Source: Patescibacteria group bacterium | GTDB taxonomy: Bacteria > Patescibacteriota > Patescibacteriia > Patescibacteriales > XYC2-FULL-47-12 | Assembly: GCA_041652935.1 (NCBI GenBank) | Contig: JBAZGH010000002.1 | Span: forward strand, 18,039 to 64,194 | Length of the DNA: 46,156 nt | Direction: 5' to 3' | Shown: positions 16,309 to 46,156 of the stretch, in pieces | Layout of the letters: each line of letters starts with the position of its first letter | Numbering within the stretch: position 1 is the first letter of the stretch | Notes under the pieces: generated by a model | Seen by the model: the letters and a program-made list of their open reading frames with translations, nothing else | Database searches by the model: none | What the model was told of the DNA's origin: nothing | Position numbers and translations under genes: made by a program

Positions 16309-17022
16309 TTAAGATTTAATTCTTTTTATCCGTAACTGCCAAAAAAGTTTCAGAGCCATTTTAGCCACATCAGTAATATTTTTAAATTGAATAGCGGAGG
16401 ACTGCTCCGTAGGGTTAATTTTAATGCCGGTTTCGTAATAGCTGATTTTTTTATTTAGCAGTTTAATAACTATTTCAGCCATATAGGCGTGCCGGTTAGA
16501 AGTAATATTTATTTTTTTAACTTCGGCTGTAGGAAAGATATTAATGCCGTTATAGTAGCGGATATGGTTGCTAAAAAGCAGGTTTAAAACCATAGTATAG
16601 AATTTTGAAAGGAAGCGCCTTCTTAAAGAACGCATCTCGGTGTTCTCAGTATAAGGTAAAATAATTTCAGCCTTGCCCAAACAACCAAAGACCTTAACAA
16701 TGGACTCATGGCTAGTCTCATCATCTCCGGGAATCCAAGCGACATATTGTTTTGTCGCTCTCTGTACAGTAACTCTATATTGATGGCCCAATCCCCGGAA
16801 GTCGCGATTCTTTAAATGATGGACAGCAATTATATGAGAATTTTGCTCTGCTAAACGGTCTATAACTTCCTGTGTTTTGTCCCAGCCCCTTTTGTCTACC
16901 AACAGCAGTTCATAGTCAGTAATTTCATTCACCTCCAAAGCCTTAAGCACGGCCCTAACAGTCGGTTCGATGTTTTTTTCTTCATTATAAGTTGTAATTA
17001 TAATTGATAGGCCTGGTTTCAT
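16309..17022 (-). CDS. Glycosyltransferase family 2 (short, DPM1/ArnC-like polyprenyl-phosphate glycosyltransferase type)
   Basis: LSIIITTYNEEKNIEPTV N-terminus and a PGDDE (DxD-like) motif. 237 aa with no C-terminal TM helix. The start overlaps the upstream gene's stop by 4 nt. Confidence 0.75.
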   Translation of the reverse strand: MKPGLSIIITTYNEEKNIEPTVRAVLKALEVNEITDYELLLVDKRGWDKTQEVIDRLAEQNSHIIAVHHLKNRDFRGLGHQYRVTVQRATKQYVAWIPGDDETSHESIVKVFGCLGKAEIILPYTENTEMRSLRRRFLSKFYTMVLNLLFSNHIRYYNGINIFPTAEVKKINITSNRHAYMAEIVIKLLNKKISYYETGIKINPTEQSSAIQFKNITDVAKMALKLFWQLRIKRIKS

Positions 17023-26962: not shown

Positions 26963-28503
26963 AATTTAATTTTAATATAAAATCTCTCTATTCAAAATTC
27001 AAACATTTATTGACTGTCAATAATATTTTTATTGCGCTAGCTTTGGCGGCAGTTATTTTTTTGATTGCTTGGACCGAGTTTAGCTATCCCTACATCCACG
27101 GGGCAGACCCCTACACCCACACCAGAATGGCTTATATAATCAGGGACCAGGGAATGCCGAAAGAACTGCACTGGGCCAGATATTCTACTTTGCGGGAAAA
27201 TTATTCAGACCGGGATTTTTTTCTCCATTATGCGATTATTCCTTTCACCTATCTCTCAAATAATTTTTATTTCACGGGGAAAATAGCGGTAGTTATTTTT
27301 AACGCTATAACCTTATTTGTTTTGGTTTGGGTAGCTGGAGTTTTTGTCAGAAAAAGATGGATTCCTTGGCTGATTTTAGGCTTATTTTTTTCCACTCCCT
27401 ATTTTGGTTCCATTCATCTGCTGCGGCCGCATATTTTTTCTCTTGCTTTCGGGCTTTGGGGACTGCGCGCCATAATTAAGCGCAATTTTTTTAGTATTTT
27501 TCTGGCGGCATTTTTCTTTTCCCTTTTTCATATCACCAGCGTGTTAATGTTGGTAATGGCTGTTTTTTATGAAATAATCAGAAAAATTAACGGAGCAAAA
27601 TTTTCTTTTAAACCCATAGTGGTTGTTTTTTCCGGTTTATTTCTAGCCTTGTTTTTCTACCCTAATTTTTATTCTAATTTTATGAATCTGTATGTTCAAA
27701 TATATAGTCAGATTCTTTATGCTGTTCTCGGAGCTGTTTCTCAATATGGAGGAATAAAATTTCCCATTGGCGGGGAAATGAATCCGACGAATACGCGCGC
27801 TTTTTTATTCGATTTCCCCTTTGTTATTATCGGCATAGCTCTGCTAATTTTAATTTTAACCTTACGCAATATTAAAATTTCTCCTAAAACTCAGTTTTTA
27901 TCCTGGTTCGCTTTGCTGTTTATTGTTTTGTCTTTTTTTAGTTATCGGTATGCTGTCCAGGCTTATCCATATATTATTCTGTTTGTTTTTGCCTTTATTT
28001 CTGAGTTAGATGAGCAGTTTAATGTTTGGAAAAAATTCAGGAAGCAAAAAATTCTCTGGCTGGCAATAATTCCGGTTTTAATAGTAGTTATATATTTAGG
28101 CAAAAATGTTGTTATCAATGTCCAACGGCAAATAGAGTCTGAAAAAGTGAATACCCAACATATTGAATCGGGGGAGTGGATGAGAGATAACCTGCAGCCA
28201 GGAGAGCTGGTTTATAATTCCTCGTGGTCAGACGGCACCCAGCTTTTCGGCATAAATCCAAATAATGACTATTTAGATTTGCTAAGTTCCGAATATATGT
28301 ATTTGTACGACCCGGACTTATACAAGCTCAGAATGGCCACCAACGACGGCCAGGGCAATGTTTATTATAATATAAAATATATCTTTAAAGCCAGATATAT
28401 TTATACCCACACCGGAACCGGCTTGGTTGGAGCGATACAAAATGATTCGCGCTTTAAGGTTCTGTACAGCAAAAACGGAGCAGTTGTTTTTGAAGTATTA
28501 TGA
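26959..28503 (+). CDS. Polytopic GT-C-fold-like membrane glycosyltransferase (ArnT/PMT/STT3-like)
   Basis: About 11-13 TM helices and a soluble C-terminal domain of about 130 aa. The first loop after TM1 carries the acidic motif HGADPYTHTRM, reminiscent of GT-C first-loop Asp motifs. The start overlaps the upstream stop by 4 nt. Confidence 0.45.
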   Translation: MKFNFNIKSLYSKFKHLLTVNNIFIALALAAVIFLIAWTEFSYPYIHGADPYTHTRMAYIIRDQGMPKELHWARYSTLRENYSDRDFFLHYAIIPFTYLSNNFYFTGKIAVVIFNAITLFVLVWVAGVFVRKRWIPWLILGLFFSTPYFGSIHLLRPHIFSLAFGLWGLRAIIKRNFFSIFLAAFFFSLFHITSVLMLVMAVFYEIIRKINGAKFSFKPIVVVFSGLFLALFFYPNFYSNFMNLYVQIYSQILYAVLGAVSQYGGIKFPIGGEMNPTNTRAFLFDFPFVIIGIALLILILTLRNIKISPKTQFLSWFALLFIVLSFFSYRYAVQAYPYIILFVFAFISELDEQFNVWKKFRKQKILWLAIIPVLIVVIYLGKNVVINVQRQIESEKVNTQHIESGEWMRDNLQPGELVYNSSWSDGTQLFGINPNNDYLDLLSSEYMYLYDPDLYKLRMATNDGQGNVYYNIKYIFKARYIYTHTGTGLVGAIQNDSRFKVLYSKNGAVVFEVL

Positions 28504-28560
28504 AGTTCGTGGTAAAATTAATGTAAATTTAATATACTACAAACATAAACAACGATTCCC

Positions 28561-30036
28561 ATGTTTTTAAAATTTCTGAATAACTATAAAGAAAGGGTCG
28601 GACAAATACTCAGTAAGCCGTTAGGGGGCATTATAGTCGGCGTATTTATGATTTTAACCATATTTACAGTTTTGGCTTTTACCGAACCGCTAGCCGCACC
28701 TTCAATCACTGAGCCGGAAACAGCCGCCTCTACCGGCAATATAGAAACATTACTAGGAACTAGCACCAGCGCCACCACAGGTGTTACCAGTGTTTTCGAT
28801 TATTTGCGGCAAATTTACACCAATATAGGCCAAACGCCCGCTTCTACGCCAGGCTTTGAAACGGATGCCGGCCGGATTAAGGATTTAGTCGGAGATTCCA
28901 GCCCCTCTACCGCCGACGGCAAGACAATTTTCCGCTATCTTAAAGCGATTAATGATAATTTAGATTTTCCTGACGCGGCTAATGTCAGGGATTCAGATAC
29001 AGTAAAAGGAGCAGCGGGGAGCATTGCAGATTGTGCATCCCCCGGCTCTCAGAGCTGTTATGCTACCGGCTCTTATTATGCCGGCACCGCTTGCGCCTCT
29101 GAAGGCTCTCAGAGCTGTTATGCTACCGGCTCTTATTATGCCGGCACAACTAAAACAATCAATAACGCCACGGTTTCCCAATCAGCCGGCTACTATGCAG
29201 CTTTTAACTTAACTACGGCTGAGTCTGATTTAACAGCCGGCAATATAGTTACGGGGATAAGCATCTTCGGCGTGGCTGGAACAGCCACTTGCCAGATAGA
29301 CGCTGACAGCGATAGCGCGAATTTATATTCCATATCTGTTTTTGATTGCAATGAGAGCAATGTTAATGTAAAAAATGCCACCGACGGCACTTGCGACGGA
29401 GATAGTGATAATTTTTTGGATTATACCGCCCGCGCGGCTAACTTGGGAAATTGGCTAGGCTATGATTTAGATGATGCTAGCGCTGATGCCACCGCCAATA
29501 AATCAGGCACAATGATTTATAACACAGACGTAAATCATGACGGTCTCTTCGGCGGCCGTAGCGGGATAGACAGCTTTTGCGTTACTTATAAGCCGGCCAG
29601 CCTAGCTTGCAACAATATCCATGCCTTTGCTTCCAATAACGCGACCGATCAAATAGTAAATATGCCCGCTGTTTATGGGTACCAGAGCAACCGGCCGTTG
29701 TATTGGGTTTCAAGGACCGGTTTATATTTAACTAAATTCGCTAATAATTGGGCAGATGCTTTGGATAATAGTATTATGGTAAACGCTCGAGATGCCGGAG
29801 CAGCTGGGTATCCTTACGACTACAATAATGGTTTTTGGACCGGTTCACTTTATGGCGGTGTTATATATAATTATGGTGGTTCGTTTGCTTGCAGCGGTTG
29901 GAGTACAAACAATGGCGCATATCCCAACTTCACCTATATTGGCACTGGTACCAACGTAGATGATCAATGGCTGATTGGACTTGGACTTACGGCGTGTAAT
30001 AGGGGAGTTAATGTATGGTGTGCCTGCAATCCTTAA
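28561..30036 (+). CDS. Secreted or membrane-anchored Ser/Thr/Gly-rich protein with a duplicated Cys-containing 20-aa unit and a Cys-rich C-terminal domain
   Basis: One N-terminal TM/signal anchor (GGIIVGVFMILTIFTVLAF), a T/S-rich linker, the tandem GSQSCYATGSYYAGT units, and a C-terminus ending ...CSGWS...ACNRGVNVWCAC. Confidence 0.5.
   Translation: MFLKFLNNYKERVGQILSKPLGGIIVGVFMILTIFTVLAFTEPLAAPSITEPETAASTGNIETLLGTSTSATTGVTSVFDYLRQIYTNIGQTPASTPGFETDAGRIKDLVGDSSPSTADGKTIFRYLKAINDNLDFPDAANVRDSDTVKGAAGSIADCASPGSQSCYATGSYYAGTACASEGSQSCYATGSYYAGTTKTINNATVSQSAGYYAAFNLTTAESDLTAGNIVTGISIFGVAGTATCQIDADSDSANLYSISVFDCNESNVNVKNATDGTCDGDSDNFLDYTARAANLGNWLGYDLDDASADATANKSGTMIYNTDVNHDGLFGGRSGIDSFCVTYKPASLACNNIHAFASNNATDQIVNMPAVYGYQSNRPLYWVSRTGLYLTKFANNWADALDNSIMVNARDAGAAGYPYDYNNGFWTGSLYGGVIYNYGGSFACSGWSTNNGAYPNFTYIGTGTNVDDQWLIGLGLTACNRGVNVWCACNP
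29044..29147 (+). repeat. In-frame tandem duplication, period 60 bp
   Basis: The 44-bp string ggctctcagagctgttatgctaccggctcttattatgccggcac is identical at 29044-29087 and 29104-29147. Confidence 0.95.
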
Positions 30037-30043
30037 AATATTT

Positions 30044-30988
30044 ATGCCTGTGAGAAAGAAAATACAAATAATATTATTTATTTCTATTTTAGTTTTTACC
30101 AACGTTTTTTTTATTAAACAAAATCCAGTTCAGGCCGCTTACAGCGGCAATTCTTCCGGCTATGCCTGGAGCGAGCAGGGAGGATGGATTAGCTTTGAAA
30201 CTGCCGATGATTATGGAGCGCAGGTAGCAGACACTTATTTAGACGGTTATATCTGGGGCGAGAAAATCGGCTATATTTCCTTAAAGCGCGACAGCGATTC
30301 GCCGGATTATGGAATTACTAATGCTATGGCCGGCGGAGAAGGCAAACTAAGCGGACAGGTTTGGAGCGAACAGGCCGGCTATATTAAATTTGCCGCAGAC
30401 GGTTCCGACTATTCCAATGATTCCGCGGCTAATTATGGAGTTAAAATTGACAGCAGCGGGGTTTTTAGCGGTTATGCCTGGGGTGAAAAAATCGGCTGGA
30501 TTAGCTTCAGCGGCAGCTGCGATACTGGCGCGGCTGATGCCTGCGACGGCGGAACTTACGGAGTAACAACCACTTGGCGGCCGAACCTTCCTCCCGACGC
30601 TCCGGTTTTGGAATCCCCGGCTAACGAATCCGCGATTAATGATAATACCCCCCTCTTATCCGCTTCTTATTCCGACTCCGATGACGGAGATACGGGCAAA
30701 ACTTATTACCGCATTGCCGCCAGCGCGGAAAATTGCCTGGCCGGCACGATTATTATTTCCGGCGCTTCTTCAGAAACTCTTACCAATAACGCTACTACTA
30801 TTTGGACTCCGCCTTCCTCGATCGGCACCAGCGGAACTTATTACTGGTGCGCGCAGAACAACGACGGCCAGGATACGTCCGACTGGACTTCGATGGGCAG
30901 TTTTATTTTAAACTATGATGAGTCTATCTCGGGGGTAGACCTTGGCGGTGGGGGAATGGAAATAGAGGGGATAGAATTCTATGAATAA
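30044..30988 (+). CDS. Secreted repeat protein (four G-x-x-W-[SG]-E-x-x-G-[WY]-I-x-[FL] units plus an Ig/FN3-like C-terminal domain)
   Basis: Signal peptide ending ...PVQA. Repeats are GYAWSEQGGWISF, GYIWGEKIGYISL, GQVWSEQAGYIKF and GYAWGEKIGWISF. ATG 30044 is preferred because the track start 29975 overlaps the previous gene. Confidence 0.55.
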   Translation: MPVRKKIQIILFISILVFTNVFFIKQNPVQAAYSGNSSGYAWSEQGGWISFETADDYGAQVADTYLDGYIWGEKIGYISLKRDSDSPDYGITNAMAGGEGKLSGQVWSEQAGYIKFAADGSDYSNDSAANYGVKIDSSGVFSGYAWGEKIGWISFSGSCDTGAADACDGGTYGVTTTWRPNLPPDAPVLESPANESAINDNTPLLSASYSDSDDGDTGKTYYRIAASAENCLAGTIIISGASSETLTNNATTIWTPPSSIGTSGTYYWCAQNNDGQDTSDWTSMGSFILNYDESISGVDLGGGGMEIEGIEFYE

Positions 30989-35303: not shown

Positions 35304-36098
35304 ATTTTACTGAATAAAAATCTATCCGATATAAAATTTAATCTAATATTAGATAAAAATTACTCCAATGATATATGGGGTAATTTTTTGTTTTAATGCA
35401 TTTTAAAGCATTATAGTACCAACTAAAATCTATCCGATAGTGTTTTATAGAGGTTTTTGTGTAAAATAATTATCGAGAAAAAAAACATAAATTATAGCCG
35501 GCAGTTATAAATATTTATTAATCATCATTAATTCATGCAGTTAGTTTTATCAAAAAAAAGACATTGTTTTATTTTTGAATTTAATAATTTTTTATTATGT
35601 TAATTTTTACATTTTTTGTACTTATTATAATTATTTTTTGATTTATATCTACTCCACAGAAAGTAGTAAGCATTCAATCCGATATCAATTTTTAGCTAAT
35701 ATTAGACTGCCATTTTAAATTTTTAAAATTAAACTCAGGGATTATCTAATTATGGTTTTTTAGCGTTAAGTTTAAAGATGGGCGCGGAATACAAAATATA
35801 TCAGCATAAATTTGACGCATAAAAAGGGAAATAAAGCATTGATTCGCCGGCGGAAAAAACTACGACCGCCCCGCATTTTTATCCGGGAATAATTCAGCGG
35901 TTGAATATAGGAAATAAAATTGAAAAATATTTTTATCATTATCAAAACCATTATTCAGATTAGAGAGAATCGGGCATGCCGAGATTCGTTTTAAATAATC
36001 GTTTTAAATAATGAAGCATTATAATAATAAGATGGAATTTATCCGATACTCTAAAATACTTTATTTATTATAATAAATCGGATTTCAATAACCGTGGA

Positions 36099-36743
36099 GT
36101 GGACGGACGTAGAGTGTTTGTAGATAAATGGGATTATGTGAGGTTTTTGGAGAGTATGCGATATTTTAATCAAATTAATCCATTTGGTAGTTTTTACGAA
36201 CAAAGTTTTATAACTCAAAATAGAGATAATTTAAATTATGTTCCTCGGAGCAACTATAGTTGCTCCGAGGAACTAGATAAACCATTAATAGAAATTATTG
36301 CCTATTGCTTGAATTCGAATCATTATCACTTGTTAGTGAAACAGAATATAGAAAATGGTATATCAAAATTTACACAAAAGGTCATGGCTGGATATACTCG
36401 TTATTTTAATAATAAATATAATAGATATGGCTCGTTATTCCAAGGAAAGTTCAAAGCTAAAGAAATAAAATCAACATACGGATTAATTAAGCTGTCTATC
36501 TATGTAAATTGTAATGCAGAAATACATGACATAGCAAAGAAGGAAAATTGGTTATGGAGTAGCTGTGGAGAGTATAGTTCAGTTCCTTCGAGCAACTATA
36601 GTTGCTCGAAGGAACAAGCGAAGGAACAAATAAAGGAAGTTTTATCTGAATTTAACAATGCTCAAGAATATATAAACTTTTGCAATGAATTAATTCCAGA
36701 GATAAGAATAATAAAAAATTTAGAGAAATATGGATTAGAGTAA
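36099..36743 (+). CDS. Y1/HuH transposase (IS200/IS605 TnpA-like or REP-associated tyrosine transposase), possibly 5'-truncated
   Basis: HuH motif NSNHYHLLV and the Tyr helix LSIYVNCNA. The conserved N-terminal strand continues in frame upstream (..FNNRGVDGRRVF) but with no ATG. The only start candidate is GTG at 36099. Confidence 0.6.
   Translation: MDGRRVFVDKWDYVRFLESMRYFNQINPFGSFYEQSFITQNRDNLNYVPRSNYSCSEELDKPLIEIIAYCLNSNHYHLLVKQNIENGISKFTQKVMAGYTRYFNNKYNRYGSLFQGKFKAKEIKSTYGLIKLSIYVNCNAEIHDIAKKENWLWSSCGEYSSVPSSNYSCSKEQAKEQIKEVLSEFNNAQEYINFCNELIPEIRIIKNLEKYGLE
36240..36273. repeat. Perfect 34-bp palindrome P1 inside the transposase ORF
   Basis: GTTCCTCGGAGCAACTATAGTTGCTCCGAGGAAC equals its own reverse complement. 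It is translated in frame as VPRSNYSCSEE. Confidence 0.95.
36582..36615. repeat. Perfect 34-bp palindrome P2 inside the transposase ORF
   Basis: GTTCCTTCGAGCAACTATAGTTGCTCGAAGGAAC equals its own reverse complement. It is translated in frame as VPSSNYSCSKE. It differs from P1 by two compensatory base-pair swaps. Confidence 0.95.
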
Positions 36744-36755
36744 AAATTTCAAAAA

Positions 36756-36786
36756 AGCACCCAGTCCTCTGCGAGGACTGGGTGCT
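36756..36786 (-). terminator. Strong hairpin (14-bp perfect stem, 3-nt loop) with the U-run on the minus strand
   Basis: agcacccagtcctc-tgc-gaggactgggtgct. On the minus strand the stem is followed by tttttt. On the plus strand it follows the transposase stop by 13 nt but has no T-run. Confidence 0.5.
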
Positions 36787-37178
36787 AAATTTATGGAATA
36801 ATTTAAATTAAAAGCCAGAAAATTATTAGAAGCATTGTGAAATAAAAGATAAAATATATCGGATACATTTGTGGAAAACTTATAATTTATTTTAAGTTTG
36901 CAAATAATATGTGGGGACAATTTAAAAGTTAAAAGCAACATATCAAATCATATCTTTTGTTTTTAGTAGAAATTTTATTGATTATATGATATTTATGGGG
37001 TTTTCTTTGCTTCCTGATTATGCTTTTAACTGTATCGGATAGATAAATTATTATAGTTTTATTTATTGCGGCAAGTAGGCAAAAAATGTTATAATTAATC
37101 TAACTTATAAAATTTATCCGATACTATATTTTAAATTAACTTTGTTTAATTTTTTTAATAAACTTGGTTATATTCCCC

Positions 37179-40100
37179 ATGCAAAAAGGAGAGCCAGAAG
37201 AAAAAATAATAAACGGCAGCCAACCGGCTGATGTTTTTGATACGAACGATTCCAACCTGAATCAAAGTTTTGAATTTTCCGGGGATAAATACGACTATAT
37301 TTCCTTGGCAGATGCAGCTAAATATACAAAGTTCAGCCAGGATTACATTTCACTTTTAGCGCGCAATAAAAAGATGCCCGCCAAGAAGTTCGGGCGCAAC
37401 TGGAAAGTGAGGATGGTTGATGTAAACGAGTACATAAAAAGGATTGAAAAAAAACAGGTCCAGCGGGAGGTTAAAAAGGAGCTTTCCGGAGCGACAAAAG
37501 CGGAGCGGGGAATAGCCAAGGCGGTTAATGCCATCAGCCCATTCAATGGGGATTCTTACTCTTTGTCAAAAGCGCATCTGACTAATTTTGCGCGCCATAA
37601 ATTCCAGACAGTATTGGCCAGTTTTTTAATTTTAACGACCATAATGTTTTCCTGCTTTTTCTGGCTTTCCCCGACTTATGCTTCAATGGCGGAAAGGGGA
37701 CTGCAGAAAGCGGCGGCTAAAACAGTCCAAGCGATATCCGGCGGAGCTGAAACTTTTAAAGAAAAATCAGTTGAAGCGATAATAGCAGCGTCTGAGATTG
37801 CTGGCTCCAGAATAGCTAAAATTGATAAAGCTTATAATAACCCTGAAAGCGGTTTTGGCCCGGAGATAAAAAAAGCCGGAGCCAGGACAGTAATCGGCGC
37901 CGAACAGTTCGGGTCTTTTATGGAAAATGGCACCTCATATCTTGAACAAAGGGCGCTGTCCAGGCAGGGCTATATAGCCGGCGTATTTGAGATTTCAGTT
38001 TTAGAAACAATAAACAATGTAAATTATTTTTCCAGTGATTTAGCATCTGCCGCTAAACAAATTTTCAGCTCTCCGTTAAAGATTGTTCCTGCTCCGGTTA
38101 GGTATGCGCTAAACGGGGGGGCGGACGCCATAAACGGATTAATCTCAAGCGGAGCCGAAAAGCTGGAGAAGAACAAAGATGCCTTAGTTAGAAACAAAAC
38201 GAGCCAAGTCGCCGGCGCTACGGAAAAGGGAAATAGCGGAAAAAGCTTCTCGGATAATTTTTTCAGTTTCATGAAAGAAACCGCGCAAGGGCAGAAAAAG
38301 CTATCCCAAGCAGTTCAATCTAAAAGCAACGATGGCTTAAAGAAAATGAGCGGCTACCAACGGAATGCCGGTTTGGCAATTTTAGAAACTTTAGCCCGCG
38401 CTACCAATAGCATTGGAAATTTCGTTAATAATAAAATTGCCAGCGGTAAATCACGGGTGTTGGGAATTCAGGAGAACGCGGAAAATACCGCCTCGGGAGT
38501 TTGGAACGGAGTCGGCAGCGGAATACTGGCAGTCAATAACAGCTTAATTAACGCGAAAGATGCCTGGAGCAACGAAGAAGTTGAATCAAAACGTTCCCTG
38601 GCAGTTTTATGGGCAACCGCTCTTGATTATTTGCTGCCGGATTCGTTGAAAGAAAAAATTGCCCGCGATTCCGGGCTTGAGCCGGCGCAAGTTGGGGAGG
38701 CGTCAAAAGAGCCGGTTATTGTAATCGGCGACAGCAGCGGAAGTACAACAGTCATTACCCGAACCGCCAGCTTGCCGCGGAGTTTTGCCATAGATAGTAT
38801 TATCGGCAGCCCGACGGTAACCGGAGATTTGACGGTAGAAGGTGGAGTGACCGCGGGCGGAGATGTTGTCCTAGAAAAAACTTTAACTGTCGGCGGCCGG
38901 TCTGATTTTAAAGCGCCGATATATTCTTCTTCCGGAGACTTTATCATTGATGATAATTTAACCGCATATGGATCAATTACCGGCAGCTCGCTTAATATAA
39001 GCAACGCGGCAATAGTAAATACTCTCCAAGTATCCGGCCAGGCAAATGTGGGCGGGCTATTATCAGCGCAGGATTTAACCGTCAGCAATAATGCTTCAGT
39101 CGGAGGAACGTTTACAGTGGCCGGCCAGTTTATTTCCCAAAATATTTCTGCCACGCGCTATATCGCAGCCGGCTATTCTTTAAGTTCGGGCGGAAGCTTA
39201 ACTGTTTCAAAAGACGCTTCCATAGGAGAAGATTTAACAGTGGGCAATGATTTAATCGTGGAGGGCAGCATTAGAACTGACGGCACTTTAACTGTTAATA
39301 GGGGAGCTTCCATAACCGGCAATACAATAATTACCGGAGACGCGACTATTACCGGGAGCTTAACGCTTAGTTCGTGGACGACTCCGTACGCACAGGTAAA
39401 GGTAGTCGCCAAATCGGGAACCGGCTACTCCACCATTGCCGCCGCCCTTAACTCAATTACCGACGCCTCGGCAACCAAAAGATATTTAATTCAGGTAATG
39501 CCGGGGGAATATAACGAGCAAGTTAATTTGAAATCTTATGTTGATATAGCCGGAGAGGGAGCCGATACTACTGTAATCAGCCAGGCCGACGCAGATGTTA
39601 TAACCGCCAGCAGCACAACCTCAACCGCCAGCTCAACCATCAGCGGATTAACTGCAAAGATAACCGCCGCTACTGCTGCCCGGTCGCTGGTTAATCTTGC
39701 AAACGCCTCTGACATTGTTATAAAAAATATTGATTTGAAATATGAAAGCGGAACCGCCGGCTATGGCGTTTACGCAACCAGCAGTTCGCCGGTAATAGAG
39801 AACGTAAACATGAGCGGCGGGTCTTTAAATTATGGCTTATATCAAAACGGCGATAACTCCGAAAGCGGAACCATAGTAAGAAATTCCCGAATCAGCGCCG
39901 TGTCCGACATTTATGTTGCCGGAACAAACAGTACCGTCTACTCTTACGACAATAAATTATCCGGAACTTACAGTTTTGATCTGGCGACTTCAACGGCAAT
40001 AGTGGAATCAACCAATGACGCGTACCAGCTTGCCACCTCAACCGGCATCGCTTTTACCGGAACTTTCAGGGATTTAACCAACGCCCGCGAATATGCCGAG

Positions 40101-43100
40101 ACTGGAAATTCTTTAGCGGTCGGCGATATAATTTATTTAGTTAGCGCGGAAACAGTAGCCAAGGCCGACGCATCCGACGCGACAAAATTACCGGCTATTG
40201 GAATTGTAATAAAAGATCTGGGCGTTAACAGAGTACTCGTTAAAAATAATGGCCAATTCTATAATTCAAGCGCCAGTTATGTCGCGAATCAAACTTACTA
40301 TATAGACGACGGCGGAGCCGCTACCACCACGCCTTATGCCGGGCGGTATTCGCAGGCGATAGGAGTTGCTAAAAGCGACAAAGCGATTGAGCTTTCTTTT
40401 TCCCGAAGCAGCGCTTTGTCGGTGATAGAAAATACAACCGCCTCGGCAATGCTCATAAATCAGCAGGGAAGCGGAAACATATTTCAGTTGCAGGATAACG
40501 GCGCGAATGTAATGACTATTTTTGACGGCGGAAACATAAGCATCGGCACCAGCTCTTCGGATAATTTATTAACCCTTTGGGGAGCAACCAGCGGAACCGG
40601 CGCTAGTTTATTAAGCATAGCCGACAGCGCTTCCACCACACTGCTGACTATTTTAGACAACGGATATATCGGAATCGGAACCTCTACGCCAATAGTTTCT
40701 TTAGATATTTACGCGACCGACGCTATACGGCTTCCGGCAGGCACAACTGCCGAACGGCCGACCGGAGGAAATGGCATGCTTCGTTTTAATATTGACTCTA
40801 ATACTTTTGAAGGATATAGCGGTTCTTCGTGGTCAGCAATAGGGGGAAGTTTAATTGATGCTGACCAGGACACTTATATTTTAGCTGAAAGTTCAGGCGG
40901 AGCTGATGAGGATACTTTATTTTTCTATAACGCCGGGCAGGAAAAAATGCGGCTAACCAGCGACGGCTACCTCGGGATCGGGACTACCAGCCCGTACGCG
41001 TTGTTAACCGTCTGGGCTACTTCTACCGATGCCGCCTTATTCAGCGCGATGGATACGGCTTCCACGACGGTCTTTACGATTTTGCCAAATGGAAATGTCG
41101 GGCTGGGAACCACGACGCCTAGCGCCCAATTAAGCATCGCCGGCGCGGACAACAAAATAAGGTTATCGCATTCAGCGGGAAATTACGGGGAAATTTACGC
41201 CGACAGTTTGGGGAATTTAAACTTATCTGCCGCTAACGACATATATGTAAGAAATAATTTAGTTCCTGTTCCGGGAAGCACGCATACAGTCGGGTCTGTA
41301 ACAAATTATTGGACGCACGGCTACTTTGATGAATTAACAGTAAATACTTTGGGCGTCGCCTCCACAACCGTTTCCGGAACGCTAACTTCCAGCTTTACTA
41401 TAAATTCGGACGCGGAAGGCGATGAAGATTCTTCATTGATATTTTATCGGGGCGGCGGTGTTTTGGGGAATGCAACGCTTAACTGGAAGTCTGCAAGCGA
41501 CCGGTTTGAATTCGGGGATGCTTCAAATCCTTACGAATTATATGTGCACGGAAATTTAACGGTCGCTTCCACAACGGCGACTTCAACAATTTCCACCGGC
41601 GGATTCGCGGTCGGCACTGACCAGTTTCTCGTTCAACAAACAAGTGGCAGGGTAGGCATAGGCACAACTTCTCCTTCCGTAGCTTTTGCAATAGACGCTA
41701 CGGACGCAATGGTTATTCCGGTGGGCACAACCGCCCAGAGGCCGGACACCGGTTATACCGGCATGTTGCGCTATAATAGTGATAACACCACTTTTGAAGG
41801 TTATAATGGCAGTGTCTGGAGCGGATTGGGGGGTGTAATTGATGTTGATCAGGATACTTACATAATTGCGGAAAGCTCATCCGGCGCGGACGAAGATGTT
41901 CTCTTTTTCTATACTGCAAACAGCGAGAAGATGCGTCTTACCAGCGGCGGATACTTAGGGATAGGAACTACTTCGCCGGACGCGGTGCTTCATATTGCCA
42001 GTTCCACCGGCGGAACTTTAATTTTAGACGACAGCGGCGGAGTCGCCAATGACCGGCTGATGGAGTTTGATATGGACGGCGGAGCTTTAACCATCAGAAG
42101 CTTAAACGACGCTTTAACAACTAATATTGATAATATCTTAGTTTTAGATAACGGCACCGGCAATGTTAGGGTGGGAAATTATTTTGAAGTCGGCGATGAA
42201 AATAACGACAGCAACAAATCGGTTTACATTGACCGCAGTTTTACCGGCACAGCCAACGCTTTTGGCATAGCAAATGTCGGAACAATTACCGGCGCCGCGA
42301 ATTCCAATATTTATGGCGCGTATTTTGCCAATAATTTTACCGAAGCCGGCAGTGGAACGCACGCTTTATTTGCGCAGGGATATTTTGCTTCTTCTACAAT
42401 TACCGCTGACGGAGCTACCATAACCGACGCGATGACACTATATATCGGCGGAGCTCCAAGCGGAGCAACTAATAATTACGGATTATATGTCGCGCCTTCC
42501 GTTGGATATTCCGTGCCCGCGTTAATCACGGACAGTTCAAATAATGTCGGAATCGGGACAACGAGCCCGTCTAAAATGTTTTCCGTCCACGGAGAAGCGT
42601 ATTTTAGCGCGACCACTACCATTGAAGGCCAGGTTCTAGCCCAGACGCTTTCTTCTTATGACCCCAATACCGGAGTGATGCCGGCGCCGGCATACAGTTT
42701 TTACAGCGACGGCGACACGGGCATGTTTAATTCTGAAGCTAACAATTTGGCGTTCGCGACGAACGGCCAGATGCGCGTTAATCTTTTTGACACGGCCATG
42801 CAGGGCGCTGTTGCCGGCACTTTCCGCCTTAATCATTCAGCCGCCGGCACGGAAGGCGCGCCCACTTACGCGTTTTGGGGGAGCAATAGCGATACCGGCA
42901 TGTTTTCGCCGGAAGACGGCGCGCTTGCGTTTACCGCCAATGCCACTGAAAAAATAAGGATTACAAGTGATGGCAACGTCGGCATCGGCACTATCTCCCC
43001 AACCTACAATTTGGACGTTACCGGCAACGCTCATTTCACCGGACTTGTTGACGCTTCCCACTTTATCGCCACCTCCACTACCGCGACCTCTACTTTCTAC

Positions 43101-46100
43101 GGCGGTTTTGCCGCGGGCAATAATGCTGGCTTGATCGTTAACCAAGCGGCGCCGGCGAATAGCTTATATATCAATTCGGCGGGGAATGTGGGAGTGGGGA
43201 CGGCTGATATGATAGGGCAATTAACCGTCAAGGGTGACCTTTCAATTTATACGGATTATGACGGCTTGGCAACAATAAAATTTTCCAGAGAGACAACTGG
43301 CGCGCCTTCTTATGTCGGCAACATTTCGTATAATCATAATTCAAACAGCATGGGTTTTGTTGTTAACGGCGACTCAAGAATGGCAATAAACTCCTCCGGC
43401 AATGTCGGTATTGGAACTAGTACGCCTTGGGCACAATTATCAGTAGAGGGGCAAGGAAGCAAGCCGGAGTTTCTAGTAACCGGAACAGATATGACTCCAG
43501 ATTTTATAGTAGATGTGAATGGCAACGTCGGCATCGGCACCACTTCTCCCTACGCCAAATTATCCGTAGTCGGCCAGACTGTTTCCGAATACTTCACCGC
43601 CACCTCCACTTCCGCCACTTCTACTTTCCCTTACTTAGCATCAACCCAATCCAACCTCGGCACAGTGGTAGGAGGCACCTGGCAGGGAACAGAGGTTGGC
43701 GTAAACTACGGCGGAACAGGAACCTCAACAGCTCCCTCTTACGGTTATGTTTTAGTCGGCAATGCCACGAATGATGGCTATGATTATATAGCCACCTCCA
43801 CTTTCGGAGGCGGCGGCGGTACAATGACCAGCTTTATTTTATCAGATAGTTCCAATACCGAAACGATTGAGAATAGCGATACTTTAACAATTCAAGGAAG
43901 CGCTAATGAAATAACAGTTCTAGTCGGGGCGACTGATACCGCCACTATTTCTTTGCCGGATGTTGTTTATATCGGAGATTCCGGAAAATTAGGCCGGGAC
44001 GCTGATAATCTGATAGACTTTACGACTGATAATCAAATAATGTTCAGGACTAACGCCGTTGATAACAGATTAGTGCTTGATAACGCCGGCAGAATCGGCA
44101 TCGGCACCTCTACCATGTCTTCCATGTTTACGGTTTGGGGCGACACTTCTGCTACCGGCGCATCTTTATTCAGCGTTGTAGATAATGCCTCCAGCACCCT
44201 GATGACAATTTTGGATACGGGCAGGATCGGTATTGGCACTACCAGTCCTTTAGCTACTTTTTCTGTCCAGGGCACGGCTAATCAAGATATATTTACAATC
44301 GCTTCTTCTACCGGAGCAAGCATATTTAAAGTATCCAGCTTGGGCAAGGTAAGCATCGGCACCGGAGGCGGTAATTATGAAATAACGCCCACTGACGGCT
44401 CGCTAGGAATTGACGGTTATCTTGGCGTCGGCACTTCTACGCCGGCTGAAGAATTGGGAGTTGCCGGAGATATTTATCTTAGCGGTTCTTTGAAGTTTGC
44501 TGACGGAAGTTCAATGAATGCGGCCGGAGGCGTATGGTTATCTAATGGCAGTGATTATTACTATAATGCCGGCAACGTCGGCATCGGCACCACCTCTCCC
44601 TACGCCAAACTCTCGGTAGTCGGCCAGACTGTGTCAGAATATTTTACAGCTACTTCCACCTCCGCCTCCTCCACTTTCCCAATGCTGGTTTCTACTTACA
44701 GCAATGTCGGCACGGTGCAAGCCGGCACTTGGAACGGAACCGCAATCAGCCACGAATACGGCGGTTTGGAATTTGACGCCTCGGCCATCACCACCGGCGG
44801 AATGATCCGCGGAGCCAGCTCCGGAGTAATGGAGATTTTAGGATTGGGAACAGCCGGACAGATACTGGGCTCTGTTAACGGACAATTAGGATATATTTCT
44901 ACTTCTACCATGCCGTTTATTTCAAACGCGCTTACCAAGGGATATTTTTTAGTCGGCGATGACAGCGGATTGGCTCAAGCTACTTCAACAATGTTTATTA
45001 GTTCTACGGGGAATGTGGGGATAGGCGATGCAAATCCTGATCAGTTACTTAATATACATCAATCGGCAGGAAGCAGTGCTTCATATGCAAGATTTACAAC
45101 CGCAGAAAGTGAGTCGGGTTCGGGAAATGGATTCTTAATAGGTTCACACAGTAATTTAAACGCTTTTGTCACCAACTATGAAAATGGGGATTTGTATTTA
45201 ACAACTAACGGAGTTTCAAATCAACTAGTTTTGGATTCCGCTGGGGGTGTTGGGGTTGGTACAGCGGCGCCAACTTCTCCGGGAAATTCTAGTAAATTTT
45301 TAACAATCTCTGGAGCTAATCATGCAGGACTAGTTTTGATAGATGAGGGTGCTAGTCGAGAATGGGAAATACAAGCTGATAATGGGTTGTATTTTATGGA
45401 AGGACAAGGGTCTTTAGCTGTACATATGTTAATAGATGCCACTGGCAACTTAGGCATCGGCACCACCTCCCCATGGGCGCAATTATCAGTAGAGGGGCAA
45501 GGAAGCAAGCCGGAGTTTTTAGTTACCGGAACTGATATGGCACCTGATTTTATTGTAGATGTGAACGGCAACGTCGGCATCGGCTCCACCACCCCGGGCG
45601 CGCTCTTCTCTGTCGGCTCGGCGGGAACCGGCTTGCAGATTAATTCCAGCGGAACAATAACTTCCGGCACCTGGAACGGAGCGGCGGTCGGCATCGCCTA
45701 CGGCGGCACCGGATTAACTACTACTCCCACCGACGGCCAGCTCTTAATCGGCAAAACAGACGGAACTTACAATTTGACTACCCTTACAGCCGGGTCAAAC
45801 GTAACAATTACTGAAGGCGACGGGACAATAACAATAGCTTCTGCTGGTGGCGGCGGCGCCGGAAGCAATTACGGCGCGGTTGGTGCGCTCGCCTTTTACG
45901 CTACCGCCGGCACTACGGCAACCGGCACGGACGTCAGCTTATTAAAATGGGACAGTTCTTTCGGCCGGCTGGGGATCGGCTCTTCCACCCCAAATTACCT
46001 TTTGTCAATTGCATCTTCCACCGCCACTAATTTTTTGCGCATCGCCACTTCTTCATCTGGAGATTTGTTCACGGTTACCAATACACAAATCACCTCAAAA

Positions 46101-46156
46101 TTGCCGGTTAACATGAATACGACCGGCGATGTGCAGATCGGCTCTGATTTGGTATT
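37179..46156 (+). CDS. Giant surface protein (at least 2992 codons, 3' end outside the window): N-terminal HTH, one TM helix, beta-helix-like repeats, pectin-lyase-like segment and many tail-fibre-like GNVGIGTTSP modules
   Basis: My manual translation of the frame starting at ATG 37179 (positions divisible by 3) found no stop up to nt 46156. An in-frame stop lies upstream at 37137. The protein sense is coherent throughout: the HTH-like ISLADAAKYTKFSQDYISLLARNKKMPAKKFGRNW at about 37293-37440, the TM helix FQTVLASFLILTTIMFSCFFWLS at 37602-37670, and repeated ...GNVGIGTTSPYAKLSVVGQT... units. The listed minus-strand ORFs from 37343 to 45694 are shadows of this gene. Confidence 0.85.
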   Translation, partial: MQKGEPEEKIINGSQPADVFDTNDSNLNQSFEFSGDKYDYISLADAAKYTKFSQDYISLLARNKKMPAKKFGRNWKVRMVDVNEYIKRIEKKQVQREVKKELSGATKAERGIAKAVNAISPFNGDSYSLSKAHLTNFARHKFQTVLASFLILTTIMFSCFFWLSPTYASMAERGLQKAAAKTVQAISGGAETFKEKSVEAIIAASEIAGSRIAKIDKAYNNPESGFGPEIKKAGARTVIGAEQFGSFMENGTSYLEQRALSRQGYIAGVFEISVLETINNVNYFSSDLASAAKQIFSSPLKIVPAPVRYALNGGADAINGLISSGAEKLEKNKDALVRNKTSQVAGATEKGNSGKSFSDNFFSFMKETAQGQKKLSQAVQSKSNDGLKKMSGYQRNAGLAILETLARATNSIGNFVNNKIASGKSRVLGIQENAENTASGVWNGVGSGILAVNNSLINAKDAWSNEEVESKRSLAVLWATALDYLLPDSLKEKIARDSGLEPAQVGEASKEPVIVIGDSSGSTTVITRTASLPRSFAIDSIIGSPTVTGDLTVEGGVTAGGDVVLEKTLTVGGRSDFKAPIYSSSGDFIIDDNLTAYGSITGSSLNISNAAIVNTLQVSGQANVGGLLSAQDLTVSNNASVGGTFTVAGQFISQNISATRYIAAGYSLSSGGSLTVSKDASIGEDLTVGNDLIVEGSIRTDGTLTVNRGASITGNTIITGDATITGSLTLSSWTTPYAQVKVVAKSGTGYSTIAAALNSITDASATKRYLIQVMPGEYNEQVNLKSYVDIAGEGADTTVISQADADVITASSTTSTASSTISGLTAKITAATAARSLVNLANASDIVIKNIDLKYESGTAGYGVYATSSSPVIENVNMSGGSLNYGLYQNGDNSESGTIVRNSRISAVSDIYVAGTNSTVYSYDNKLSGTYSFDLATSTAIVESTNDAYQLATSTGIAFTGTFRDLTNAREYAETGNSLAVGDIIYLVSAETVAKADASDATKLPAIGIVIKDLGVNRVLVKNNGQFYNSSASYVANQTYYIDDGGAATTTPYAGRYSQAIGVAKSDKAIELSFSRSSALSVIENTTASAMLINQQGSGNIFQLQDNGANVMTIFDGGNISIGTSSSDNLLTLWGATSGTGASLLSIADSASTTLLTILDNGYIGIGTSTPIVSLDIYATDAIRLPAGTTAERPTGGNGMLRFNIDSNTFEGYSGSSWSAIGGSLIDADQDTYILAESSGGADEDTLFFYNAGQEKMRLTSDGYLGIGTTSPYALLTVWATSTDAALFSAMDTASTTVFTILPNGNVGLGTTTPSAQLSIAGADNKIRLSHSAGNYGEIYADSLGNLNLSAANDIYVRNNLVPVPGSTHTVGSVTNYWTHGYFDELTVNTLGVASTTVSGTLTSSFTINSDAEGDEDSSLIFYRGGGVLGNATLNWKSASDRFEFGDASNPYELYVHGNLTVASTTATSTISTGGFAVGTDQFLVQQTSGRVGIGTTSPSVAFAIDATDAMVIPVGTTAQRPDTGYTGMLRYNSDNTTFEGYNGSVWSGLGGVIDVDQDTYIIAESSSGADEDVLFFYTANSEKMRLTSGGYLGIGTTSPDAVLHIASSTGGTLILDDSGGVANDRLMEFDMDGGALTIRSLNDALTTNIDNILVLDNGTGNVRVGNYFEVGDENNDSNKSVYIDRSFTGTANAFGIANVGTITGAANSNIYGAYFANNFTEAGSGTHALFAQGYFASSTITADGATITDAMTLYIGGAPSGATNNYGLYVAPSVGYSVPALITDSSNNVGIGTTSPSKMFSVHGEAYFSATTTIEGQVLAQTLSSYDPNTGVMPAPAYSFYSDGDTGMFNSEANNLAFATNGQMRVNLFDTAMQGAVAGTFRLNHSAAGTEGAPTYAFWGSNSDTGMFSPEDGALAFTANATEKIRITSDGNVGIGTISPTYNLDVTGNAHFTGLVDASHFIATSTTATSTFYGGFAAGNNAGLIVNQAAPANSLYINSAGNVGVGTADMIGQLTVKGDLSIYTDYDGLATIKFSRETTGAPSYVGNISYNHNSNSMGFVVNGDSRMAINSSGNVGIGTSTPWAQLSVEGQGSKPEFLVTGTDMTPDFIVDVNGNVGIGTTSPYAKLSVVGQTVSEYFTATSTSATSTFPYLASTQSNLGTVVGGTWQGTEVGVNYGGTGTSTAPSYGYVLVGNATNDGYDYIATSTFGGGGGTMTSFILSDSSNTETIENSDTLTIQGSANEITVLVGATDTATISLPDVVYIGDSGKLGRDADNLIDFTTDNQIMFRTNAVDNRLVLDNAGRIGIGTSTMSSMFTVWGDTSATGASLFSVVDNASSTLMTILDTGRIGIGTTSPLATFSVQGTANQDIFTIASSTGASIFKVSSLGKVSIGTGGGNYEITPTDGSLGIDGYLGVGTSTPAEELGVAGDIYLSGSLKFADGSSMNAAGGVWLSNGSDYYYNAGNVGIGTTSPYAKLSVVGQTVSEYFTATSTSASSTFPMLVSTYSNVGTVQAGTWNGTAISHEYGGLEFDASAITTGGMIRGASSGVMEILGLGTAGQILGSVNGQLGYISTSTMPFISNALTKGYFLVGDDSGLAQATSTMFISSTGNVGIGDANPDQLLNIHQSAGSSASYARFTTAESESGSGNGFLIGSHSNLNAFVTNYENGDLYLTTNGVSNQLVLDSAGGVGVGTAAPTSPGNSSKFLTISGANHAGLVLIDEGASREWEIQADNGLYFMEGQGSLAVHMLIDATGNLGIGTTSPWAQLSVEGQGSKPEFLVTGTDMAPDFIVDVNGNVGIGSTTPGALFSVGSAGTGLQINSSGTITSGTWNGAAVGIAYGGTGLTTTPTDGQLLIGKTDGTYNLTTLTAGSNVTITEGDGTITIASAGGGGAGSNYGAVGALAFYATAGTTATGTDVSLLKWDSSFGRLGIGSSTPNYLLSIASSTATNFLRIATSSSGDLFTVTNTQITSKLPVNMNTTGDVQIGSDLV

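Follow-up and report, generated by a model that had tools for sequence, protein, structure and literature searches.

A giant gene of Candidatus Falkowbacteria with an excisionase-like helix-turn-helix, one transmembrane helix and a tail-fibre-like ectodomain, preceded by a conserved palindrome

We analysed a 46,156-nucleotide stretch of Patescibacteria DNA (contig JBAZGH010000002.1; hereafter the window), which a giant open reading frame (ORF) leaves at the 3′ end. The window comes from the chromosome of a low-GC bacterium and carries genes for GroES/GroEL, an aminoacyl-tRNA synthetase, glycogen synthase, glycan assembly, LemA, a TPM phosphatase and an M16 peptidase, and a search of it for tRNAs and for phage genes besides the fibre-like ORF found none. 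The original prediction, made from the letters and an ORF list, held that the frame stays open from the ATG at 37179 to the window end and that the gene is missing from the list as it is unclosed. Computational translation of 37179-46156 bears this out, with zero stops in frame +1 over 2,992 codons; the closest in-frame stop 5′ of the ATG lies at 37137-37139, and the start (MQKGEPEEK...) agrees with the N-termini of orthologues (MHKGEPEEK..., MLVKGE...). Since the gene has no stop in the window, the ORF list shows only short ORFs over its span, most of them antisense. The intragenic DNA repeats are at most 82-86 % identical, and therefore nothing points to collapsed identical copies inside the window. 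At third codon positions the GC content (GC3) resembles that of the genes nearby, which argues that the giant gene is native, while its excess GC sits at codon position 2 because the protein is rich in Gly, Ala, Ser and Thr. A foreign origin of the fibre part, considered on account of its higher GC, was rejected on the same figures.

An exhaustive profile search returned a complete, contig-internal orthologue of 3,846 amino acids (aa), P0005, found with identical sequence on three independent contigs (72-227 kb). The flanks of P0005 match the window, with Lcl_C, LemA, TPM, M16 peptidase and Y1_Tnp genes followed by the giant gene, and identity between the two proteins falls from 84 % (head) through 63 % (linker) to 59 % (stalk). 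The last 95 residues of the window protein align to P0005 residues 2939-3033 at 83-91 %, so that about 810 C-terminal residues probably lie beyond the window and the complete protein is probably about 3,800 aa long, judging from this alignment. An index of 5.8 billion proteins held only three close relatives of the N-terminal 520 aa, one of them named Candidatus Falkowbacteria; all three appear truncated, and the two contigs examined end inside the gene. Taken together, these results show that the giant ORF is a genuine conserved gene of Candidatus Falkowbacteria, which belong to the candidate phyla radiation (CPR), in a conserved chromosomal neighbourhood. The features of the gene and its leader are listed in Table 1.

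Table 1. Coordinates of the giant gene, its domains and its upstream sites in the window
Feature	Coordinates	Strand	Remarks
Giant ORF, 2,992 codons	37179..46156	+	Open to window end; last complete codon ends 46154
Excisionase/MerR-type winged helix-turn-helix, aa 40-88	37296..37442	+	Profile matches, predicted fold; predicted cytoplasmic
Single transmembrane helix or signal-anchor, aa 142-165	37602..37673	+	Sole hydropathy peak
Region after transmembrane helix, ~355 aa, aa 166-520	37674..38738	+	Conserved in orthologues, A/S/K/E-rich
G/T/V/S-rich beta-helix-like stalk, aa 521-745	38739..39413	+	Sub-threshold Bactofilin match
Lineage-specific insert, aa 746-1076	39414..40406	+	First ~180 aa predicted pectin-methylesterase-fold beta-helix; rest poorly modelled
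Tail-fibre-like repeat region, aa 1077-2992 (~1,900 aa)	40407..46154	+	Modules shuffled relative to orthologues
First copy of ~100-aa 'P.GTTA.RP...GMLRFN...TFEGY' module, aa 1162-1260	40662..40958	+	From repeat comparison
Second copy of the same module, aa 1490-1588	41646..41942	+	66 % identical to first
Candidate extended -10, TGTTATAAT	37087..37095	+	Conserved between window and L003, in one island; putative, read from sequence
Proximal TATCCGATA site	37115..37123		64 nt 5′ of ATG, ~20 nt downstream of candidate -10; conserved in orthologous locus
Second TATCGGATA site	37033..37041		82 nt upstream of proximal site
Third TATCGGATA site	36857..36865		Inside conserved spacer island
Distal TATCCGATA site	36040..36048		Just upstream of Y1_Tnp gene
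Distal TATCCGATA site	35431..35439		Exact motif copy
Distal TATCCGATA site	35323..35331		20 nt past M16 peptidase stop codon

The N-terminal head carries an excisionase/MerR-type winged helix-turn-helix (HTH). Pfam HTH_17 (PF12728) matched it with an E-value of 3.1e-5 and 24.6 bits, under the gathering score of 27, and NCBIfam TIGR01764 ('excise') gave 28.6 bits with a cut-off of 28.8; P0009, a relative, reached 36.1 bits with HTH_17 and is above threshold. As modelled with AF2 (AlphaFold2), the head folds as beta-alpha-alpha-beta-beta-alpha (strand 40-42, helices 43-49 and 54-62, strands 68-71 and 74-78, helix 79-102) at a predicted local distance difference test score (pLDDT) of 77-87, and compact Foldseek superpositions were obtained only with excisionases (RdfS, Pukovnik Xis) and BldC, at root-mean-square deviations of 1.5-2.5 Å. 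Across the family of such heads described below, there is almost no variation in the recognition helix (S-Q-D-Y-I-S-L-L-A-R) or in the wing (K-K-F-G-R-N-W-K).

An N-terminal signal peptide is absent from the giant protein, and its one hydropathy peak is a transmembrane (TM) helix with a hydrophobic core of 19-23 residues. A conserved TNFxRxKFQ precedes this helix, and S-P-T-Y-A/S follows it (the slash marking a possible cut), resembling a small-x-small cleavage motif. The flank charge is +3 on the N-side vs 0 to +2 on the C-side in 5/7 orthologues, which favours an N-in topology; under the reverse topology a fibre of 2,800 aa would stay in the cytoplasm, an implausible outcome. We therefore infer that the helix acts as a type-II signal-anchor that keeps the HTH in the cytoplasm and places about 2,800 or more residues outside. 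One Cys is present in the 2,992 residues (C159, within the TM helix), and the C-terminal FGE-sulfatase-like tip of the orthologues is Cys-rich.

The predicted ectodomain begins with the conserved post-TM region, for which no Pfam or PDB match was found. On the stalk tile, Bactofilin (PF04519) reached 26.8 bits vs a gathering threshold of 27.9, and P0007 and P0008 gave 26.4-26.6. The next segment is an insert of the window protein alone: P0005 is without it, and P0007 has seven FG-GAP repeats in its place. Pectinesterase (PF01095, CE8) matched the tile of aa 734-1100 with 32.8 bits vs a threshold of 27, over profile positions 3-86 of 298; the insert model is a right-handed beta-helix with a pLDDT of 75-94 over ~180 aa, and its best Foldseek matches are pectin methylesterases (E 2e-5 to 1e-3; the top ones, 8tne, 1xg2 and 1gq8, at 2e-5 to 1e-4). 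Because the profile match stops before the catalytic region, and none of the catalytic Gln/Asp/Asp/Arg motifs of CE8 (QxxD/QDT, DFIFG-type) is visible by eye in the alignment with homologues, the insert is not a demonstrated enzyme, and it is better regarded as a glycan-binding or structural beta-helix.

The repeat region makes up the remainder of the window protein and has 19 G-x-[VIL]-G-[IV]-G-T/S-x-x-P motifs (G-N-V-G-I-G-T-T-S-P type) from aa 1162 to 2929. The order of its modules differs among the window protein, P0005, P0007 and P0008, giving a mosaic. Matches to PHROG tail-fibre and virion-structural families (6005, 9942, 18345) have E-values of 1e-24 to 1e-53, and with tblastn 188 phage records match the region, mostly structural and tail-fibre proteins of T4-like cyanophages. 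In the PDB, the GxxGIGTxxP repeats matched Bdellovibrio Bd2133 (8ond) and 8ojn, weakly (E 1.5e-3), and a PDB sequence search with the 'GTTAxRP' module returned nothing usable. The counterpart of the missing C-terminus in P0005 and P0008 comprises ~200 aa that are conserved but unannotated, a stretch that is acidic and looks helical, and, at the end, an FGE-sulfatase-like domain of C-type-lectin-like fold (E 6e-7 in P0005 and 2e-7 in P0008). The ~200-aa region ('SGSADYAEFYW...GIVSTKPA...GD.LTSS...TVGVALE') lies at aa ~3100-3240 of P0005 (L003) and is also present in P0008; it had no usable sequence match in Pfam, PHROG or PDB and, lying before the tip, might be a module for autoprocessing or a chaperone. 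An S74 domain was detected neither in P0005 and P0008 nor in the window protein, whose C-terminus lies beyond the window.

Most of this anatomy had been anticipated, and the coordinates given beforehand for the HTH, TM helix, G/T/V repeats, beta-helix segment, repeat modules and motifs all check out. The near-threshold profile scores and the AF2 winged-HTH fold support the excisionase/MerR-like HTH at the N-terminus, and the TM helix placed at 37602-37670 coincides with the hydropathy peak. The G/T/V-rich, beta-helix-like repeats were located at aa ~541-734, with sub-threshold matches to the Bactofilin beta-helix, and the pectin-lyase-like segment starts at aa ~748, where the Pectinesterase tile exceeds its threshold and the Foldseek matches are of the pectin methylesterase type. 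The 'many' [GN]NVGIGTTSP units are the 19 counted here, and their proposed kinship to phage fibres agrees with the PHROG and phage matches and with the weak ones to mosaic adhesive trimer (MAT) fibres of Bdellovibrio. Two modules of ~330 aa had also been described: the repeat does exist twice, but its core is only ~100 aa long, and 328 aa is the spacing. Thus the overall architecture of HTH, TM helix and giant tail-fibre-like ectodomain is supported, as is the guess of an episymbiont, the relatives being Falkowbacteria and other CPR.

We searched a profile of the first 180 residues against 1.84 billion representatives, and the family of the head comprises 2,711 clusters (at 50 % identity) at E<=1e-3 and 509 at E<=1e-10. 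The HTH, TM and length statistics cover the best 151 of the 2,711 clusters. The HTH is at the extreme N-terminus in 151/151 (median start residue 9), often as two or three tandem copies; a strong hydrophobic segment follows it in 113/151 and is the only one in 104/151, many of the others being short fragments. Members are 74 to 6,890 aa long, and 16/151 exceed 1,500 aa; their ectodomains, of 100 to over 6,000 aa, are essentially unannotated, and HTH_17 is the only match in 62 of 79 members (E down to 1.6e-15). The named members and genome matches are almost all Patescibacteria (Falkowbacteria, Saccharibacteria, Nealsonbacteria, Komeilibacteria, Kuenenbacteria, Paceibacteria). A search of all six frames of the window found no further HTH of this family. 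One member, P0021 (L160 3001-9234; 2,077 aa), has two HTHs, a TM helix, collagen repeats and a C-terminal Peptidase_S74, and is an independent fusion of the family head to a tail-fibre-type protein.

The neighbourhoods of other family members offered several observations. Short HTH-TM genes (123-211 aa) lie directly 5′ of a long HTH-TM gene in six loci (L016, L017, L019, L020, L022, L025), each gene often with its own copy of the motif described next, and these pairs could be a regulator and its effector or a recent duplication. A RodA/FtsW-like multi-TM gene is directly upstream of an HTH-TM gene in two loci (L018 831-1925, with motif copies 5′ of it, and L023 2210-3304), so some family members may be RodZ-like and tied to cell-wall synthesis. 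Soluble MerR/HTH_17 genes of 69-70 aa (L158 2254-2466 and L023 3361-3570, both on the minus strand) diverge from HTH-TM genes and share the motif-bearing intergenic region with them. A gene for a very large Laminin_G_3 (concanavalin-like lectin) protein follows the giant HTH-TM gene in two CPR genomes (L003 21725-27862, L157 23790-26673), which suggests surface-protein gene islands; the equivalent region lies past the window end.

The leader of the giant gene holds repeated copies of a 9-bp palindrome, TATC[G/C]GATA. Six exact copies occur in the window vs 0.49 expected (maximum 3 in 100 shuffles), and all six lie at 35323-37123, between the stop codon of the M16 gene and the ATG of the giant ORF, within 1.85 kb before the ATG. 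When the 435-nt spacer was aligned with that of P0005, three conserved islands stood out in otherwise diverged AT-rich DNA, each of them holding the palindrome. Orthologous loci have 5-9 copies each in the same place, with the two proximal sites 81-82 nt apart. Relative to the candidate -10, the proximal site, ~20 nt downstream, would be in a repressor-like position and the second site, ~50 nt upstream, in an activator-like position.

This association extends beyond the orthologues. The exact 9-mer is found within 300 nt upstream of 7/7 orthologues and of 14/32 distant CPR HTH-TM genes, and a 7-mer core upstream of 24/32 of the latter, where the density of the exact 9-mer is 1.76 per kb vs 0.18 per kb elsewhere. 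The distant loci often carry a composite 21-bp palindrome, TATCCGATA-N3-TATCGGATA, at about -140 to -180. As a negative control, eleven composition-matched palindromes were found at 0/39 genes. A metagenome scan with the composite palindrome only (DNA only) returned 120 loci (729 kb) with 39 family HTH domains, and 37 of these start 29-376 nt downstream of the palindrome. The other part of the scan, 83/120 loci, is a heterogeneous, chance-like background, often inside ORFs, so that the composite palindrome alone is not diagnostic and the signal is its adjacency to nearly all the family HTHs of these loci. Four further giant members were also inspected: two carry the 9-mer, both at exactly -166, a third carries a near-exact composite at -30, and the fourth (L159), whose recognition helices are divergent, has only a one-mismatch site (n=1). 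Taken together, these results show that TATC[G/C]GATA is associated with HTH-TM genes across CPR lineages. The DNA-binding-like N-terminus had been called unusual and unexplained; it instead defines a large family of single-pass CPR membrane proteins, with the upstream palindrome as a candidate explanation.

Other accounts of the motif were tried. Covariation of HTH sequence with motif presence was uninformative, the loci having been picked by the KFGRNW-wing peptide pattern, with nearly identical HTHs. A match of tandem HTH copies to paired sites was rejected, as paired 21-bp palindromes occur upstream of single-HTH proteins. An Rfam scan of the 2-kb leader for structured RNA found no family, and an RNA structure at the motif was set aside since the 9-mer alone cannot form a hairpin and the sequence is conserved, not just its pairing potential. 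The motif was also considered as part of the IS200/Y1_Tnp element, like repetitive extragenic palindromes (REP), and this was rejected as five orthologous loci with 5-9 copies have no Y1_Tnp. At 36099-36786 of the window, an IS200-like Y1_Tnp gene (HUH motif 'HYHLLV'; 33.3 bits with Pfam) precedes a perfect hairpin with a 14-bp stem and a 3-nt loop (36756-36786). On the orthologous contig this leader region carries Y1_Tnp twice, and the transposase, located in the regulatory region of the fibre gene, may be domesticated or REP-associated. Between the M16 and Y1_Tnp genes (35304-36098, ~800 nt) there is no credible ORF, and three of the window's six motif copies fall in this stretch. Where orthologues have no Y1_Tnp, their apparently non-coding leader is 1.4-2.3 kb long and has the same distal sites.

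We favour, at a probability of roughly 55 %, the reading that the window ORF encodes a type-II-anchored, probably trimeric adhesion fibre that is also a transmembrane transcription regulator of its own gene. The ectodomain would trimerise and form a beta-prism fibre measuring several tens of nm, comparable to phage tail fibres and MAT fibres, and its variable inserts and lectin-like tip (FGE-sulfatase-like in orthologues) would attach to the glycans or surfaces that a host or partner cell presents. The cytoplasmic HTH would bind the TATC[G/C]GATA sites flanking the gene's own promoter and, held at the membrane, would feed back on, or tether, its own very costly gene. Such cells are 0.2-0.3 µm across, and the nucleoid is always within the membrane's reach.

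Several points weigh against this reading. Trimerisation, surface exposure and adhesion are argued by analogy with known fibres, and the window excludes the C-terminus and hence the presumed binding tip. The HTH scores of the window protein itself are formally sub-threshold with both HTH_17 and TIGR01764, and for the head Foldseek gave no significant E-value, as expected for a 55-residue domain inside a 180-residue query. That the head binds DNA, or this motif, is suggested indirectly by the palindrome upstream of family genes, and about a quarter to a half of the distant family genes are without an exact site within 300 nt. A soluble regulator other than the head could bind the motif, given the small divergent MerR/HTH_17 genes in L158 and L023, and the small-x-small motifs after the TM helix (TYA/S, AQA/A, VSA/S, AHA/S) allow for cleavage of the fibre from the head. 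A doubtful extension of the fibre-regulator reading is that the HTH-TM head serves as a contact sensor or DNA tether: binding outside, or tension on the fibre, would alter the occupancy of the TATC[G/C]GATA array at the gene's own promoter by clustered HTHs. If true, CPR would couple host attachment to expression, or to positioning of the locus at the membrane, through one polypeptide and without two-component systems, a regulatory logic that could be lineage-wide in thousands of otherwise unannotated CPR membrane proteins.

The same fibre is also conceivable with the palindrome as the operator of a different, soluble regulator and the HTH head as a protein-protein handle or localisation module, which we hold to be possible, if unlikely. 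RodZ, an HTH-TM-ectodomain protein whose HTH binds MreB and not DNA, is the precedent, and the RodA/FtsW-like genes directly upstream of HTH-TM genes in L018 and L023, the small MerR/HTH_17 genes adjoining HTH-TM genes in L158 and L023 and the indirect, sequence-based link from HTH to DNA all fit it. However, the motif follows the HTH-TM family across CPR lineages irrespective of ectodomain and neighbours, no small HTH gene is near the window locus or most of the loci, and neither the RodZ-type HTH_25 nor DUF4115 was detected by Pfam at E<=1. As would be anticipated for residues that read a constant DNA site, the recognition helix and basic wing (SQxYxSLxAR, KxGRNW) hardly vary, and the one locus with divergent HTHs, L159, is without an exact motif (n=1).

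Two further explanations change the fate or the origin of the fibre. The HTH-TM part might be a cleavable pro-region, signal peptidase cutting past the TM helix to free the fibre to the surface or medium and leave one membrane-anchored HTH stub of ~165 aa per fibre that reports export to the promoter. A helix-breaking Pro followed by T-Y-A/S, A-Q-A/A, V-S-A/S or A-H-A/S after the TM helix in 5/7 orthologues speaks for this, as do the cleavable signal peptides of MAT fibres (PMC10769870) and the 123-211-aa HTH-TM genes that exist alone in six CPR loci, which make a stub-sized protein viable. We consider cleavage improbable nonetheless: a hydrophobic core of 19-23 residues is long for the h-region of a signal peptide, the small-x-small motif was judged by eye, and the conserved ~355-aa post-TM region resembles a dedicated membrane-proximal stalk. 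It is hardly credible that the ORF belongs to a phage or prophage as a tail-fibre gene, or arose in assembly as a chimera or collapsed repeat, instead of encoding a cellular surface protein. Such an origin would account for the strong PHROG and phage tblastn matches, the IS200-like gene immediately upstream and a repetitive gene that leaves the contig end, as four homologues likewise do, but the window has no other phage genes and its neighbours are housekeeping and envelope genes. Moreover, synteny is kept in several Falkowbacteria, the contig-internal orthologue is identical in three independent assemblies, the intragenic repeats are <=86 % identical, GC3 is like that of host genes, and a cytoplasmic head on a TM anchor is no trait of virion proteins.

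Elsewhere in the window, three consecutive ORFs at 25049-30988 (637, 491 and 337 aa) have no Pfam match, and the 491-aa ORF has the high, fibre-like GC at codon position 2; their counterpart on the orthologous contig is a 481-aa protein with COLFI/Fibrinogen_C matches and an unannotated 692-aa protein, so these ORFs may encode further surface proteins. Two paralogous genes for fused E1 (alpha+beta) 2-oxoacid dehydrogenase/transketolase-like proteins are in opposite orientation (17019-19034, minus strand; 20694-22679, plus strand), with a bifunctional cytidylyltransferase-PfkB kinase gene between them.

To our knowledge, host recognition and attachment by CPR/Patescibacteria, and their regulation in reduced genomes, are largely unknown. 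The locus described here offers a testable handle in the form of an HTH of ~130 aa, a 9-bp site and a promoter with activator-like and repressor-like sites. If the head does bind the motif, thousands of 'hypothetical' CPR membrane proteins could be read as membrane-resident autoregulators on surface structures, and tail-fibre-like adhesins would then be seen to recur in bacteria living on other bacteria (Bdellovibrio, CPR). Even without the regulatory link, annotation can draw on the definition of the family, on the complete orthologue and on the mosaic map, most head-family genes now ending at contig edges and being labelled 'excisionase family DNA-binding protein, partial'.

Among known systems, the head shares its sequence family (HTH_17, TIGR01764) and predicted fold with Xis, RdfS, BldC and the N-domain of RacA; those proteins are soluble and 50-130 aa long, whereas the window HTH heads a giant membrane protein. 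RodZ likewise has an N-terminal cytoplasmic HTH, a single TM helix and an extracytoplasmic C-terminus, and some family members adjoin a RodA/FtsW-like gene, but its HTH is XRE-type (HTH_25) and its C-domain is DUF4115, neither of which was detected in the window protein. MyRF is a eukaryotic membrane-bound transcription factor with a phage-derived S74 domain for trimerisation and self-cleavage. Like the window protein, it unites in one chain modules derived from phage fibres, a membrane span and a DNA-binding domain, and P0021 also carries Peptidase_S74. MyRF differs in domain order and topology, and its DNA-binding domain is unrelated; release of the head is not known for the window protein, and MyRF serves as an analogy only.

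Transmembrane transcription regulators (TTRs) are an established and widespread class, defined operationally in a survey (PMC10269533) by a DNA-binding domain and at least one TM region in one chain, and the window protein has an HTH (aa 40-88) and a single hydropathy peak (aa 142-165). ToxR, TcpP and CadC, which act from the membrane, share with it the N-terminal DNA-binding domain, single TM helix and extracytoplasmic C-terminus. Classical TTRs have OmpR-type or XRE-type domains and sensors of 100-300 aa, whereas the putative 'sensor' of the window protein and its orthologues is a structural fibre between 2,800 and more than 3,600 aa long. HTH_17 accounts for 151 of the 50,302 TTRs (0.3 %) in the survey, and its text and part of its supplements make no mention of Patescibacteria or CPR. 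Our literature search found no description of this HTH head as a membrane anchor, or of the TATC[G/C]GATA motif.

On the fibre side, T4-like cyanophage tail-fibre and virion proteins and S74 fibres share 'GTTAxRP...GxLRFN' and GNVGIGTTSP units with the window protein; unlike them, it is encoded by a chromosomal gene, is predicted to have a membrane anchor and a cytoplasmic head, and lies outside any virion context. The MAT fibres of Bdellovibrio bacteriovorus (Bd2133, Bd1334, Bd3182; Caulton et al. 2024, PMC10769870) are cell-encoded and phage-tail-fibre-like, as is the window protein, and belong to a bacterium that lives on other bacteria. Their motif V-G-G/N-pi-x-x-P-x-x-x-L has its counterpart at the sequence level in turns of the V-G-x-G-x-x-P-x-x-x-L type, a similarity that is weak and confined to the repeats. 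The shuffled modules of the window protein and its orthologues recall the 'chimeric fibre' mosaicism of MATs, and mosaic domain content and variable tips, which in MATs include lectin folds, are further likenesses. A crystal fragment of Bd2133 spans 142 Å for 370 aa, and the repeat region alone would be ~70 nm long if built in the same way. MATs, however, are ~1,000 aa long and have a cleavable signal peptide and a conserved, beta-rich N-domain of ~130 aa; the window protein has neither, starts with an HTH, a TM helix and a helical-looking linker, and is three to four times longer. Because both halves thus have known relatives, MAT fibres and TTRs, the finding is not categorically new; what is new is the combination of HTH-TM head and fibre, its scale in CPR and the conserved operator-like palindrome.

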